A DNA stretch of 64,000 nucleotides from Eledone cirrhosa (lineage: Eukaryota): contig OZ024749.1 in assembly GCA_964016885.1 (NCBI GenBank), forward strand, positions 31,310,001-31,374,000, in the 5' to 3' direction. This document shows, one piece after another, positions 1,807 to 64,000 of this stretch. The first letter of the stretch is position 1, and each line of letters begins with the position of its first letter. A program made the position numbers and the translations under genes. The notes beneath the pieces were generated by a model. It ran no database searches. It was given only the letters and a program-made list of their open reading frames with translations, and was not told the DNA's origin.

Positions 1807-3569
1807 TAAATATTTATACTCTGCTTTGTAATGAGTACCTTACTTACTGTGGTTACCCCCGATTGAACCGGGGATAAACTTATATATATAGATATGTATA
1901 TATATATATATATACTAAGCGTACGTACATATTCTTACGTGCATATACACACAGACACAATTATAAACACACACATGTATTTATTTATCTATATGTACAT
2001 ATTTCACAATGCTTCAAGCAAACTTTAACACCCTCTTATATGTATATATATATATGTGGGTGTGTATATATATATATATATGTGTGTGTGTGTGTGTGTG
2101 TATTATACGTATATACGTACAATTATACCTATATATTTTTACATGTATATAGACATACACACACCCAGTTACACGCATACACACACAAACACAATGATAT
2201 ATAATAGAAATGTAAGTGTCTACTAATGAACTGAATGCCTCAATATATATTACACTCTCACCAGTTCAATGTTTGTCTTTAGTGACGTTTCCAACCCATT
2301 AACTTTTTTTCAATTGATTTTACTGAAGCTGAACTGCTAATGCAATTCTCTTACTAAATAAAACCCTGTTCATTCATAAAGTTATTGCACAGGGCCGCTT
2401 CCTTGTTAGGGTTTTCGGCTCATAATCCTGACTCCGATTTTCGGGTTTTATCCTTGTGCTCTACACGTTATTTCACTTTGCTCCTGTCTACTATACCATA
2501 CAGGTACCCCTGCCTACTATGATATACAGGTACCCCTCAAAATTGAGGGGGACCTGTACATCAAAGGGCGAGCCAGCCTTGTCACACACTGTGTTACGCT
2601 GAATCTTCCTGAGAAAAAAGTTAAGAACACCGGCGTCTGAGAAATGGGTAGCCACTTGCTTGTTAATTTCATGAGTACGTAGTTTCGTTGATCGAATCCT
2701 CTGTGGTTATACTCTTCATCGTCACTGACGGAGTTTCAATAGGTTTAATATCATATACTTTTTTTAACTGTTTCATATTTTAATTCGTTCATATAATGTA
2801 TCATTTTATTATACAGTAGAAGTATGTTTTATTTTAAAATAATGGGTATTTTATTTTAAAATAAGGGGCATTCCATTATCAGAGCCGACTTATCTCATAA
2901 CCACACACGGCTGTTTAACGGGGCCCACGTTTTAATGACTCCGAAATTCAATTTTTTGTTGACCTTAAAATAATATTTATATTCTATCAGTTTCTTGCAG
3001 TTTTTGACTTAAAGTGTTTACCTTCTATTATTGTACAGTTTGTGTCTTTCTCACAGTTTTCGACTTAAACCTTTAGTTACCATCCCGGCCAAAATAGGCT
3101 CTGCTTCTATGAAATAAAACCACCCATGTTAAAGGGTTCCAATTTGTATTCTTCTTCTTATCGTGTCTACAAGAGTGTGGGCTAGAAAGCTTGGCTAACT
3201 CTGGTTTCGCCACAGCTGAATACATTGCTGTCCTTTCTTCTTAAATTTGTATTAAAATCATTCAATATAATTTTGTATAAGAGCCTTACATTAAGTTCCT
3301 ATTTTAGCTATGAAATGATTAATAACTGTTTCTACTTTTGGCACAGGGACAGGAATTTATCCCAGTGCATTACTGGTACTTTATTTTATCGACCCCGTAA
3401 GGATGACAGACAAAGTTAACCTCGGCGGATCTAAACTCAGAATGGCAAGGGCCGTAACTCTATGATTCCAAGCATGACTTCCTACCGATTAATAATGTTA
3501 GTAAATCGCTCAAAGTTCTCAATTAATTCATTTAAAATAGAGTCTATTTTACTAGAAATGCTGTGAACT

Positions 3570-3770
3570 GAATTTCTACTATTGTACAGTTTGTCTTTCC
3601 TGCAGTTTTCGACATAAAGTATTGAACTTTTACTATCATACCTTTTGTCTGTCTCACAGTTTTCGACATAGTGTTGAACTTCTACAATTGTACAGTTATT
3701 CTTTCTCACAGTTTTCCACATGAAGTGTTGAACGTCTATAATACAGTTTGTCTTTCTCACAGTGTTTACA
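3570..3770. repeat. ~55-bp diverged tandem repeat (related copies 2975-3070)
   Basis: tacagtttgtctttctcacagttttcgaca recurs. Confidence 0.85.
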
Positions 3771-4757
3771 AATTGACTTGATGGCATCATACATACACAC
3801 ACAAGTGTATAACGGCGTGTCTGTCTCTTGCCTGGATACATGTTTGTTTGCTAACAGTCTCATGTGGGTACAACAAAATATATATTCAATGACGAAGGTG
3901 GAGGTTATTTAGAATGGAAAGTTTGTTCAATATTTTAAATCAACAGAACAGCCTTTAAGTGGTTAATCAATCCATAGACACGTCCACCCATAAGGTAAAT
4001 GTCAGGCAGATTTGGCAAGACAGTATGCAACGGAGCTAGACGTTTCAATTACAGGTGCTAACGAAACTGATTAACATCTATGACTTTATACAAGAAATTA
4101 TAAATTTTGGTTCATCTCTTTTGAGCAAATTATCTTCTACATTTCTTTTTCTGTTTCGCCAGTCTTTTTTTTTTTTCTTTGTCTTTCCGTTCGTTTCTCA
4201 AATAAACATTGTCCCCTAATCTATTTAAAATATATTTCAAAGGATACATTTTTCTTTCTAACAAAATGTATTTCCTTAACATAATAATACAATTATAATT
4301 TGTAGTGACTGTTTATTTTGTTTTGTTTCTTTTACCCAAATTGCAAACGTACGGATTTTTTTCTCATATTTTATCTATGTGTCTATATGTCTATATATAT
4401 ATATATATTATATATATATATATATATATATATATATATATATATATATATATATATAATACATAATAATACATATATATAATTTTATATGTATATATAT
4501 ATATATATATATATATATATATATATATATATATATATATATATATATATATATATATATATATATATATATACATATATACGTATATATATAAAAAGGG
4601 TAAATATAGTAAGTACTGTAAACTTTTTAAAATTTATTTTAAAACTTTTTCTCTATTTGCTAAACCTTGAATATATATATATATATATGTGTGAATGAAG
4701 TAATTCCATCGGAAAAGTCCAAGAAAAAAGAGTGCTCTATGTAGGTAACAGAGCTTA

Positions 4758-4961
4758 ATAGTTATGTAATAAACAACATAAGGCAATTATTTCATTTACA
4801 ACTGGTTTCTTAAAAGCAAAAAAATGTTGCTTTCAATCATCAGAATGAAAAAATCCTCTAGCGGATTTTTTCATTCTGATGATTGAAAGCAAATTTTTTT
4901 TGCTTTTAAGAAACCACTGGTAAATGAAATAATTGCCTTATGTTGTTTATTACATAACTAT
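4758..4961. repeat. DNA palindrome, 99-bp arms, 6-nt loop, abutting (TA)n
   Basis: 4758-4856 is the near-exact reverse complement of 4863-4961. Confidence 0.95.
4869..4929 (+). ncRNA. Type I hammerhead ribozyme (mirror copy on - strand at about 4790-4850)
   Basis: tttcatt CTGATGA(4876-82) ttgaaagcaaa/tttgcttttaa GAAA(4910-13) ccactgg TA^(4922) aatgaaa. Confidence 0.85.
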
Positions 4962-61216: not shown

Positions 61217-61723
61217 TCAATCCGGAGCTTTGTAGTTATGCAAGAGGTGTTTTGAGACGTGTGGACAACGTGTGAAGAATCCATTTCTCGTGTTTAGGGA
61301 ATCACTATTGCATAATCTCTTTAGAATATTTATTCGTTCATCAATACATAGTCCACACGACGGATTTCCCCTTGCGTATGGTTTGGACTTAATGATGGCT
61401 TTCCATTGAATAGAGTAGTCTATACTTGAGTCCTTGAGGGACCATACCTGGCTGGCGAGTTTCGTGGATGAACGTCTGTCCGACTACCTAAAGGTCAACT
61501 GGTGGTTCAGGAAACGTTCCTTAAATCGGCCCTCCGCCATACCCACATATGATTTGACCTGCTGTGGTTCGTTTGGTCGGTTGGAAGTGACCACAGCTTC
61601 ATAGATTACAGCTGGTGTGTTGCATTGCTGTTGAAGGGTGCAAGCTTCGGGCTTACGGCAAGAGCACCCTGATAGGGTGTTGCTCCTAGGGCTGGTGGTG
61701 ATGTGGGCCTTGATGTTCTTCAT
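61217..61723 (-). pseudogene. Penelope-like (Neptune-type) retroelement C-terminus: Cys-rich linker plus GIY-YIG endonuclease, 5'-truncated, one in-frame stop
   Basis: ORF 61484-61723 reads CSCRKPEACTLQQQC..VIYEAVV..KSYVGMAEGRFKERFLNH. Reading through the TAG at 61484-86 the same frame continues STKLASQVWSLKDSSIDYSIQWKAIIKSKPYARGNPSCGLCIDERINI..LNTRNGFFTRCPH to TGA at 61217. This matches the PLE GIY-YIG motif series (VIY..YVG..R..H..CxLC..E..LN..CxH), with the Cys linker typical of Neptune. Confidence 0.9.
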
Positions 61724-63317
61724 GTAAACTTGGCCAGATTACAGAACTAAACAATATATGTTAAAACCAAACAAGATTTGAACTCAGAATTTCAACGAAT
61801 GCTCTAGCAATTTGGCAAAGTCGCAACCATAACTATGTAATTTGCATATAAAACAGCAATACAATGAAATGATCATAAAGTTTTGTGAGCAAATGGATCA
61901 CATGGGCGACTTTTTCTCTTTTAATATGTTATCTATTTTAATTATATTTATTCCTGTTAGAACTTAAGCAAAATAATCTTTGTGGAAGCGAAATAATCTT
62001 TCTTGAATTTACATTTGCTTTAATTATAATTGAAGAAGCAAACACATTCCTATGTATATATATATATATATATATATATATATATATATATATATATATA
62101 TATATATATATATATATATATATATATATATATATATATATGTATATGTATATATATATGTATATGTATATATATATGTATATATATACATGCATATAGA
62201 CATATATGAGTGTGCGTGTGTGCGAGTGTGTGAGTGTGTTCGTATGGTTTTAACTATGATTAAACAAATGAAGTCACGTATATATGTATGTATGCGTGTG
62301 TATATGCATGTCTGTCCATGTATATACGTATATACCTGTGTATATATATATATATATATATGCTTGTATATATTTATAAATATACATGAGAATATACATA
62401 AATATACACATATGTATATTAGCCGCATACATCCATACATACATACATGCACAATTCTAATATGGCGGCTTTTAATTTGATATGCAATGCTGCAAAAATA
62501 TAATCATTGTCTGATTTGTTGGATATAGAGGGGTCAGACGTCACATGGTTAGCATATCAGAATCCTGATTGTTGCTAATATTAAATCACACAGTACATGT
62601 TCCCGTACCGTCCATGAATTTAACATTTCACAAACGACAATACATGTTGCCGTGCCGGTAGTGGTGGTGGTGATGGTGGAGATGGAGATGGTGTTATTGT
62701 TGTTGTTATTCATTAGTCCCATGTAAGGCCCTTATTAATGGGATCTATCATCAAAACAATCCCAAGCCTCATCGAATCCTGTATCACTAGGCAGTGAGTT
62801 AGCCAAACTGGCATTTCTAACTTTTTTTTTAGTTTTGAGTCCTCCGTTCAAATCCCACCAAAGTCTGGTTGTTCTATGCTCAAATCCATCTGTGATCAAC
62901 CTTGCTTTTCAGTGATCCGTGGTTATTAGAATACATTGCAATAGAATTTTATTAACAAACACATTGGAGTCCATTTAAATGTGTGTATATATATTATATA
63001 TATATATATATTTATATATATGTTTGTGTGTGTGTGTGTGTGCGTGTATCTAATATATATATATATATATATATATGTATATAAGTAAATATATATATAT
63101 ATATATATATATATATATATGTATGTTTACTTTTATATATATATATATATATATATATATATATATATATATATATATATATATATATATATATATGTAT
63201 AATATATATATATATATATATGTATATAATATATATATATATATATGTATATAAAATATATATATATGTATATAATATATATATATATATATATATATAT
63301 ATTATATATATATATAT

Positions 63318-63750
63318 ACGATATTAAACAAATGGAAACTATATTTATATTTATAAAACCATATTTATTTCGTTATATATATTTCTGGGATATCATATTA
63401 AAAATATGTTATGCCTTCCTCAGACAAAATACAATACATAAGCTGTTTTATAAATAATTAGTGACATACCTTGTGATAATGCAACTTCCTTTTAAAAAGT
63501 TGATTTGGTACCAAATCAACTTTTTAAAAGGAAGTTGATTTGGTACCAAATCAACTTTTTAAAATCAACTTTTTAAAAGGAAGTTGCATTATCACAAGGT
63601 ATGTCACTAATTATTTATAAAACAGCTTATGTATTGTATTTTGTCTGAGGAAGGCATAACATATTTTTAATATGATATCCCAGAAATATATATAACGAAA
63701 TAAATATGGTTTTATAAATATAAATATAGTTTCCATTTGTTTAATATCGT
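63318..63750. repeat. DNA palindrome, ~190-bp arms, reiterated centre
   Basis: Arms 63318-63506 and 63562-63750; gttgatttggtaccaaatcaac occurs twice in the centre. Confidence 0.95.
63637..63702 (+). ncRNA. Type I hammerhead ribozyme (mirror copy 63366-63431 on - strand)
   Basis: tattttgt CTGAGGA(63645-51), imperfect stem II, GAAA(63683-86) tatata TA^ acgaaata. Confidence 0.8.
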
Positions 63751-64000
63751 AAACCTACTCCAGAAACTGTTGAGTGCTTTTATATCAGTTATAAAATATT
63801 TACTCGTTGTAACCCAACAATCTTAAATAAAACTGTTGCATATATATATATATATATATATATATATATATATATATATATATATATATATATATAATAT
63901 ATATATATATATATATATATATAATATATATATATATATATTCAATATTAACAATATTAAATATTAAATAAATGGAAAACTATATTTATAAAACCATATT

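Follow-up and report, generated by a model that had tools for sequence, protein, structure and literature searches.

Penelope-like elements (PLEs) are retroelements whose insertions may carry an optional extension at one end, the tail, and an inverted 5'-truncated copy, the inverted pseudo-long terminal repeat (pLTR), as set out in the relevant sections of Arkhipova 2013 (PMC3846280) and Craig et al. 2021 (PMC8557442). One lineage, the Hydra clade, is described in the latter as having a short single open reading frame (ORF) with RWK-like, DKT, CxCX5C, CxxC and CxH motifs, a hammerhead ribozyme after the 3' untranslated region (UTR) and (TA)n targets, and its list of families includes one from octopus. 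How the PLE reverse transcriptase (RT) chooses its start, and how the one-sided tail and inverted arms arise, has been an open question since the class was described; the sections concerned in Craig 2021 and in Frangieh 2024 (PMC11167929) both call for a mechanism. The 64,000-nt stretch of the Eledone cirrhosa genome analyzed here (GenBank assembly GCA_964016885.1, contig OZ024749.1, positions 31,310,001 to 31,374,000; hereafter the window, numbered from its first letter) contains a series of truncated insertions in TA tracts that share a bulged hairpin. This hairpin is real, a structured cis-element found across one clade within a known class of retroelements, and it probably sets the points at which Hydra-clade PLEs start copying.

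Where copies are read in context, the motif runs from RCTC through a variable stem and a 2-nt bulge on the 3' side to GAGYRCT. An initial annotation of the window, made from the letters alone, had proposed a conserved tail of two hairpins, the first opening (A/G)CTC and closing YGAG(T/C)RCT. That first hairpin is present at 11/11 of its cited sites, where the bulge is mostly TT, TC or TA and GAGY is followed by RCT or a variant. Three of these sites each depart from the motif once (20477 opens TCTC, 43319 opens GCTA and 51253 closes GAAT), and the bulge is AT at 1818 and 1 nt long at 24301. The structure-aware scan that recovered the eleven sites, the family A copies and two sites additional to the original list was devised after the cited sites had been viewed, and its recovery is not an independent test. 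A stricter, sequence-only pattern has 18 matches in the window, 11 of them with a microsatellite 40-75 nt past the GAG, against a mean of 0.23 in 200 shuffles (maximum 2) and a single match in the reversed window. Across the whole 3.0-Gb genome the motif matches 116,803 times, compared with 2,194 for the reversed pattern, and it can serve as a marker for annotating Hydra PLE ends, of which this genome holds over 100,000. An Rfam scan of the window listed 150 matches, all under the gathering score and mostly on microsatellites, and a scan of 15 foreign loci gave one chance match (E 0.37) and none of relevance; no Rfam family was found to include the motif.

Other parts of the proposed tail fared unevenly. 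Its placement 3' of an adjacent ribozyme on the same strand is borne out at six sites, where an intact or variant hammerhead core precedes the hairpin by 66-112 nt. The microsatellite expected 40-60 nt past the GAG lies at 41-55 nt at 7/11 sites, at 61-68 nt at three and at 129 nt at 29124. A conserved second small hairpin within the tail was rejected: in 20 non-redundant leaders the mean folding z of the spacer is -0.36, with no position or sequence common to them, and the folding excess is slight (z < -1 in 7/20 leaders, 0/20 in a control stretch).

The families that carry the motif had been called otherwise unrelated, a label that proved misleading because five of them are ends of related coding elements. 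Motifs and organization assign these five as truncated 3' ends of coding Hydra-clade PLEs. Two coding remnants lie in the window, one at 61720-61238(-) from the family of the 24301 tail (Hydra-B) and one at 31502-30300(-) from the family of the 43250 tail (Hydra-A). Family A (Hydra-C), the 63756 family (Hydra-D) and the 29655 family (Hydra-E) also run into Hydra ORFs, as does a sixth family (Hydra-F) with a copy at about 51948-52155. Hydra-A, a young family whose copies are 97-99% alike, has a single short ORF of 709 aa (YRDD at 346, IVY...YIG at 583) that combines an RT with a C-terminal GIY-YIG-type endonuclease; its protein had no match in a Pfam search, and relatives carry PF26215. Among the clade motifs encountered are RLRWR at 35, SDKT at 114 in locus L092 (SNKT in L074), CNCRNRADC, CDLC and CKH. 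After the 3' UTR, hammerhead cores can be recognized from sequence in Hydra-B, D, E and F, with a CAGAAGA variant in Hydra-A, and the families insert into (TA)n. The units of Hydra-A (3,259 bp) and Hydra-C (3,118 bp) slightly exceed the clade norm, generally under 3 kb, because their 3' UTRs are long. Readings of the repeats as Helitron/HINE ends or as SINE-LINE tails were discarded in view of the Hydra ORFs found upstream and downstream.

Coding families gave rise to most of the window copies, which are 5'-truncated and no longer active. No ORF link was found for the sites at 1817, 4695, 8169, 8985/51251, 20395 and 29124, which, all except 20395, are multi-copy among the loci compared; these six may be non-autonomous. 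The motif was found only in Hydra-type PLEs. It follows the ORF in 0/32 loci of other GIY-YIG PLEs (PF01541-positive, Neptune-/Poseidon-type; drawn from 150 hits, 12/32 with only about 1,500 nt of flank). The PF01541 model misses Hydra-type proteins, and a homolog query aimed at new families yielded what appear to be further Hydra-A copies. By eye, loci L011-L042 comprise about seven PF01541-positive families with sharp ends at TA tracts and no CTC/GAG motif. One such family (L026, L027, L030, L036, L037) has a hammerhead and seems to stop at two positions, and may thus have a signal of its own.

Tandem copies give the order of the Hydra unit as ORF, 3' UTR, hammerhead, site X, hairpin 1, spacer, site Y, hairpin 2 and ATG. 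Insertions stop about 7 nt upstream of either hairpin: at site X, ahead of hairpin 1, no tail is present, whereas at site Y the tail, consisting of hairpin 1 and the spacer, is retained and hairpin 2 lies just beyond the insertion end. Both stops are frequent in samples chosen without regard to the tail, with 17 Y and 13 X ends among 30 for Hydra-A, 14 Y, 12 X and 4 other among 30 for Hydra-B, and 11 Y, 13 X and 1 other among 25 for Hydra-E. In 9/10 family-by-site classes the modal junction falls 3-10 nt upstream of the hairpin, with a 2-4 nt TA overlap with the target. The hairpin lies 3' of the end it would set, about 7 nt off, and is not copied into that end. What the tail contains is hairpin 1, which would be included whenever hairpin 2, outside the insertion, determines the start; the distance of 40-60 nt in the initial annotation corresponds to the spacer separating the two hairpin copies.

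Hairpin 2 is present in Hydra-A, C and F, and was predicted beyond site Y for three more families (Hydra-D, Hydra-E and the 1817 family) before being searched for. The predicted Hydra-D hairpin gave 470 matches against 7 for the control, with a Hydra ORF behind it in 12/12 loci, and that of Hydra-E gave 48 against 1, with an ORF in 9/10. In the 8169 family, one read-through copy (locus L377) has, by eye, a second hairpin downstream. In locus L355, the upper part of the Hydra-A hairpin 2 reads C-TTCG-G, a classic stable RNA tetraloop, and a C-CTCG-G variant also occurs. Hairpins of the hairpin 2 type without a Hydra ORF match within 400 nt (L337, L365, L372, L376, L366, L369) may be long leaders or non-coding derivatives.

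Inverted insertions almost always join the two sites. Among 130 inverted head-to-head pairs collected with seven reference copies, 110 join an X end to a Y end, 2 are X-X, 8 are Y-Y and 10 have one end unclassified. All eight Y-Y cases are internal read-through junctions of copies longer than a unit, with the far end at X in seven and outside the locus in one; two of the eight are also counted among X-Y. Loci for family A and the 63756 and 1817 families were partly found via their tails, which biases the total against X-X, and the three tail-blind families alone give 62 X-Y against 2 X-X. In 14 X-Y pairs the Y arm consists of a tail fragment that stops short of X, so that the arms have no common sequence and neither can be a copy of the other; in these pairs the Y arm measures 24-40 nt and the X arm 37-500 nt. 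There are also X arms that exceed the Y arm in length, and in the diverse families similarity is higher between the arms within an insertion than between arms from separate insertions. One-ended extensions, inverted 5'-truncated copies and partial tandems, the hallmarks of PLE tails and inverted pLTRs, were all found. At 31580-31691 in the window, two 29-nt Hydra-A tail pieces with an identical breakpoint stand face to face across a TA tract.

The same arrangement extends beyond Eledone cirrhosa. An alignment of 40 Hydra-type proteins was used to collect 79 metagenome loci, relatives at 43-77% amino-acid identity. The motif is found in 35/45 foreign leaders of sufficient length and is present twice in 27/45, against a background in the 79 loci of one match inside ORFs and nine on the antisense strand. 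Hairpin 1 sits 44-69 nt past the hammerhead GAAA and hairpin 2 sits 34-74 nt ahead of the ORF start. TA occurs at -9..-4 in 53/59 foreign motif contexts compared with 20, 20 and 31 in control windows. Foreign ends were looked at in 35 loci, 11 without a leader repeat, 11 off contig and 1 read-through; 9 of the 12 mappable ends lie 0-12 nt ahead of a hairpin. Inspection by eye of six published Hydra consensus sequences found the canonical motif in three, from sea cucumber and coral (Hydra-1_Ajap has both hairpins at its 5' end, while Hydra-2_Amil and Hydra-2_Ajap have hairpin 1 at the 3' end), divergent versions only in Hydra-1_Obim and Hydra-1_Crog, and none in Hydra-1_Amil, which ends short of it.

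Foreign motifs were collapsed to 58 clusters for a pairing test. The upper stem pairs solely in the register with the 2-nt bulge, four other registers remaining at background, and its successive pairs form in 54/58, 38/58 and 27/50 cases against 30.6, 16.8 and 12.3 in shuffles. In hairpin 1 alone, pair 1 forms in 30/31 (T-A 15 times, C-G 15 times, with at least 7 pair-type switches on the protein tree) and pair 2 in 24/31 (all four types, at least 10 switches). Covariation was judged by permutation and tree counts; the shuffles ignore relatedness and the tree counts partly allow for it. These results agree with the initial annotation that the inner stems vary while staying paired. That annotation had let its reading stand or fall by covariation, a fixed distance to element ends and presence in autonomous PLEs; the first is present, the second appears in the modal junctions and the X and Y end classes, and the motif occurs in Hydra-A, C, D and E units that lead into ORFs.

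Together, the observations are best accounted for by a reading to which we assign a probability of about 0.7, in which the bulged hairpin, carried twice by Hydra-clade PLEs before the ATG, anchors the RT-endonuclease, copying starts about 7 nt upstream and insertion proceeds by twin priming. The endonuclease would nick both strands of a (TA)n tract, and each nicked 3' end would pair with the UA upstream of one hairpin. Each hairpin would bind the protein 3' of the UA, and internal reverse transcription would be primed on uncleaved tandem or circular RNA, which arms longer than one unit require. Two primings per insertion, one at each hairpin, would yield two cDNAs of variable extent, whose truncated ends are then linked in head-to-head orientation. 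The Y-primed arm would copy hairpin 1 and the spacer, and twin priming at two hairpins would thereby explain the known PLE tail. The initial annotation had proposed an RNA signal for PLE priming at (TA)n; a PLE cis-signal tied to such priming is probably the right description, with the geometry reversed.

A wider proposal, given slightly better than even odds, is that twin priming is obligate and depends on an RNA handle common to the clade and about 25 nt long (UA, 3-5 nt, GCUC-stem-UH-GAGCACU). With two copies per RNA, the handle would load two telomerase-related RTs, each of which would prime internally from one strand of the cut (TA)n target. If true, this would explain the PLE tail together with the inverted ends, and transferring the handle to an RNA of choice could define the point at which its copying begins.

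Several observations weigh against the anchoring of copying by the hairpin. Many ends fall in the 'other' class (34 against 16 at Hydra-C site Y, for example) as differences between subfamilies prevented a match, and two main classes, at -15 and -8, were obtained for Hydra-D site X. The search for a hairpin 2 in the 1817 family returned 14 mixed matches, with no hairpin 2 or ORF found among them; the 29124 family has a 129-nt tail, and family A (Hydra-C) lacks a canonical hammerhead core. One of the two X-X pairs (L265) looks genuine, the other being disrupted. Outside the genome, the strict motif is absent from 10/45 leaders and 3/12 mappable ends are located elsewhere. The upper stem of hairpin 2 is weaker, its pairs 1 and 2 falling within shuffles (p 0.12 and 0.16), and the CTC/GAG core does not covary because it is nearly invariant. 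The numbers of G-U and A-C pairs are too small to establish RNA, as opposed to DNA, as the form in which the structure acts.

In one alternative, considered unlikely, the hairpin is read on DNA: the endonuclease would recognize it in the donor or a cDNA intermediate and cut about 7 nt upstream, X and Y being resolution cuts. The tail is ascribed to endonuclease-mediated resolution in the passage of Craig 2021 (PMC8557442) that deals with it, earlier work cited in Frangieh 2024 (PMC11167929) had found that the Penelope endonuclease needed the tail to cut plasmids, and the stem-loop could also form in single-stranded DNA. However, a Y-primed cDNA would not contain hairpin 2 and an X-ended arm does not contain hairpin 1, so the signal must be read on the template, where a hairpin that sets an end without being copied into it is best placed. 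The 14 pairs with arms sharing no sequence and the conservation of TA where a (TA)n primer would pair also argue against cutting of DNA.

It is rather improbable that the hairpin instead marks RNA 3'-end formation, by cleavage or termination about 7 nt upstream, with two RNA species then copied from their 3' ends in the manner of LINEs. Sharp X and Y ends would likewise result, but one X-ended and one Y-ended RNA would be needed in nearly every insertion (110 XY against 2 XX), and the Poseidon PLE starts internally irrespective of the 3' end of its RNA, according to the portion of Frangieh 2024 (PMC11167929) on RT starts.

There is little probability that the inverted arms result from one cDNA folding back to prime itself, or from synthesis on an antisense template, with the hairpin only stopping or trimming the second strand. 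Self-priming from palindromes at inverted junctions was proposed in Arkhipova 2013 (PMC3846280, section on these junctions), and copying would make same-insertion arms more alike than arms across insertions, as observed, but one RNA or one source locus would be expected to do so equally. Fold-back can yield neither the short Y arms joined without overlap to X arms nor X arms longer than Y arms, and is already contradicted by the non-overlapping pairs, unless all of these stem from later deletions. Least probable of all is that the hairpins serve translation control or ribonucleoprotein assembly in the leader while UA dinucleotides alone set the ends: hairpin 2 does lie shortly ahead of the ORF in relatives, a position where autoregulatory protein sites occur, yet leaders are TA-rich and the ends use the TA just upstream of each hairpin, and a leader function could be a second role.

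Feature coordinates in the window are collected below. The two further motif copies belong to one family, whose read-through copies (L362, L244, L374) seem to hold three hairpins in a row and which, having no Hydra ORF match within 400 nt, may be non-autonomous. In the 29124 family, the tail (29125-29284(+)) extends about 130 nt past the GAG and has the same end in loci L023, L041 and L348; no inner second hairpin was identified in it. The Hydra-F mini-insertion joins an inverted partial tail to a hammerhead-bearing arm (core at 52055) that stops at site X.

Motif copies, inverted arms and coding remnants in the window, with positions counted from its first letter (hp1, hairpin 1)
Feature	Position	Strand	Remark
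Hammerhead core CTGATGA...GAAAC...GTC	1752..1785	+	66 nt 5' of hairpin at 1818
hp1, bulged hairpin of hammerhead-bearing 1817 family	1818..1839	+	tail to about 1880
hp1, bulged hairpin, TA bulge	4731..4754	-	hammerhead core starts 4843(-)
Inverted tail-less arm, ends at site X	4845..4961	+	partner is tailed arm 4689-4874(-)
Bulged hairpin, GAGCTAT variant	8169..8197	+	family copies stop at two positions
Tail-less Hydra-D end	8814..8979	+	hammerhead core at 8875; stops at site X
Bulged hairpin, about 70% like 51253 copy	9029..9055	-	structure-aware scan
hp1 of family A (Hydra-C)	12841..12866	-	sequence-only pattern
hp1 of family A (Hydra-C)	20286..20312	-	structure-aware scan
Deviant hairpin, opens TCTC	20447..20477	-	no further copy among loci compared
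hp1 of family A	23821..23847	-	structure-aware scan
hp1 of family A	24013..24039	-	inverted X arm 24114-24177(+)
hp1 of Hydra-B, 1-nt bulge, GTCC/GGAC stem	24301..24323	+	tail ends 24361
hp1 of family A	24430..24456	-	inverted X arm 24522-24578(+)
Bulged hairpin, long-tail family (GAG to TA 129 nt)	29125..29161	+	hammerhead variant at 29034; inverted X arm 28813-28928(-)
hp1 of Hydra-E	29704..29746	-	hammerhead core 29850(-); inverted X arm 29943-30166(+)
Hydra-A remnant: ORF end, 3' UTR (interrupted about 30519-30632), hammerhead variant	30300..31502	-	ends at site X
65-bp Hydra-A insertion: 29-nt Y arm(-) joined to 38-nt X arm(+)	31663..31727		arms without common sequence
Further motif copy, absent from initial annotation	40092..40120	-	structure-aware scan
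hp1 of Hydra-A, decayed copy	43269..43319	-	hammerhead variant CAGAAG at 43390(-)
Further motif copy, absent from initial annotation, repeated family	44696..44724	-	structure-aware scan
Bulged hairpin, GAAT replacing GAGT	51253..51279	+	structure-aware scan
Hydra-F mini-insertion, limits approximate	51948..52155	+	by eye, against loci L342 and L373
Hydra-B remnant: broken endonuclease coding part 61720-61238, 3' UTR, hammerhead core at 61047	60980..61720	-	ends at site X
hp1 of Hydra-D	63757..63778	+	hammerhead core 63645; inverted X arm 63311-63508(-); tail ends about 63840

Other repeats occur in the same sequence. In a short TA-flanked piece at 12397-12542, CTC/GAG is loosely matched on either strand; the piece has no further copy among the loci compared. 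Another repeat, starting with a short palindrome without a bulge, lies in TA tracts at 10715-10729(-) and in loci L024, L328 and L334. An abundant SINE-like repeat of about 190 bp is found at 3320-3486 and more than 20 other sites, and tandem arrays with periods of 25, 55, 97 and 239 occupy 5754-6660, 48305-50118, 21959-22273 and 25577-26456. Elsewhere in the genome (G000:C1:14,234,975-14,242,752, loci L217-L241), a satellite consists of 58-bp units, each with one family A-like hairpin and a short spacer; a generic double-hairpin pattern was abandoned because this satellite swamped it.

In L1 twin priming there are likewise two primings per insertion, with non-overlapping arms and one poly(A) start. 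The 3' stem-loops shared by SINEs and LINEs are bound by protein near the RT start; those of LINEs lie 5' of the start and are copied, unlike the present hairpin, which lies 3' of the start it sets. Elements flanking the template of telomerase RNA accompany short primer-template pairing. As PLE RTs are the sister group of telomerase RT, an RNA anchor near the primer-pairing site bears on the origin of template definition. Because the motif is short, covaries, is duplicated and keeps a fixed distance from both ends, the choice of RT start becomes directly testable, and the motif may also offer a minimal handle for writing DNA from RNA templates.

Earlier publications already cover the tail, inverted arms, hammerheads, (TA)n targeting and the Hydra clade itself. 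Neither the motif nor its duplication nor the X-Y rule was found described in literature searches or Rfam, with most subscription papers and Repbase notes outside their scope. Craig 2021 (PMC8557442), in its text on the clade, makes no remark on a hairpin, a duplication or a distance to ends; its consensus file contains the motif. At least six Hydra families are present in the window, compared with the one octopus family in that list. Tails here measure about 65-95 nt (longer at 29124) rather than the 30-40 nt given where PLE tails are described in Arkhipova 2013 (PMC3846280), and, unlike in that description, both limits map to a repeated structured motif and the X-Y pairing has been counted. 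Non-LTR retrozymes, as the corresponding sections of Cervera and de la Pena 2020 (PMC7229834) and Li et al. 2026 (10.64898/2026.07.22.740005) present them, resemble the window copies as short hammerhead-bearing repeats tied to PLE ends. They are non-coding tandem units with a hammerhead per repeat (PMC7229834), a definition that was rejected here, as the five families lead into Hydra ORFs and are truncated ends of coding elements.

Another described counterpart is the Poseidon PLE PAc of Anolis, as covered in the mechanistic sections of Frangieh 2024 (PMC11167929). It belongs to another clade, its starts lie in an AC-rich stem-loop inside the ORF, and those sections mention no repeated motif common to several families. 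It nevertheless lends weight to twin priming, as it parallels what is seen or proposed for the Hydra families of the window in its AT-rich target and in two internal RT starts that bound the tail, with both strands cut and extended on uncleaved RNA and hammerhead cleavage not needed.

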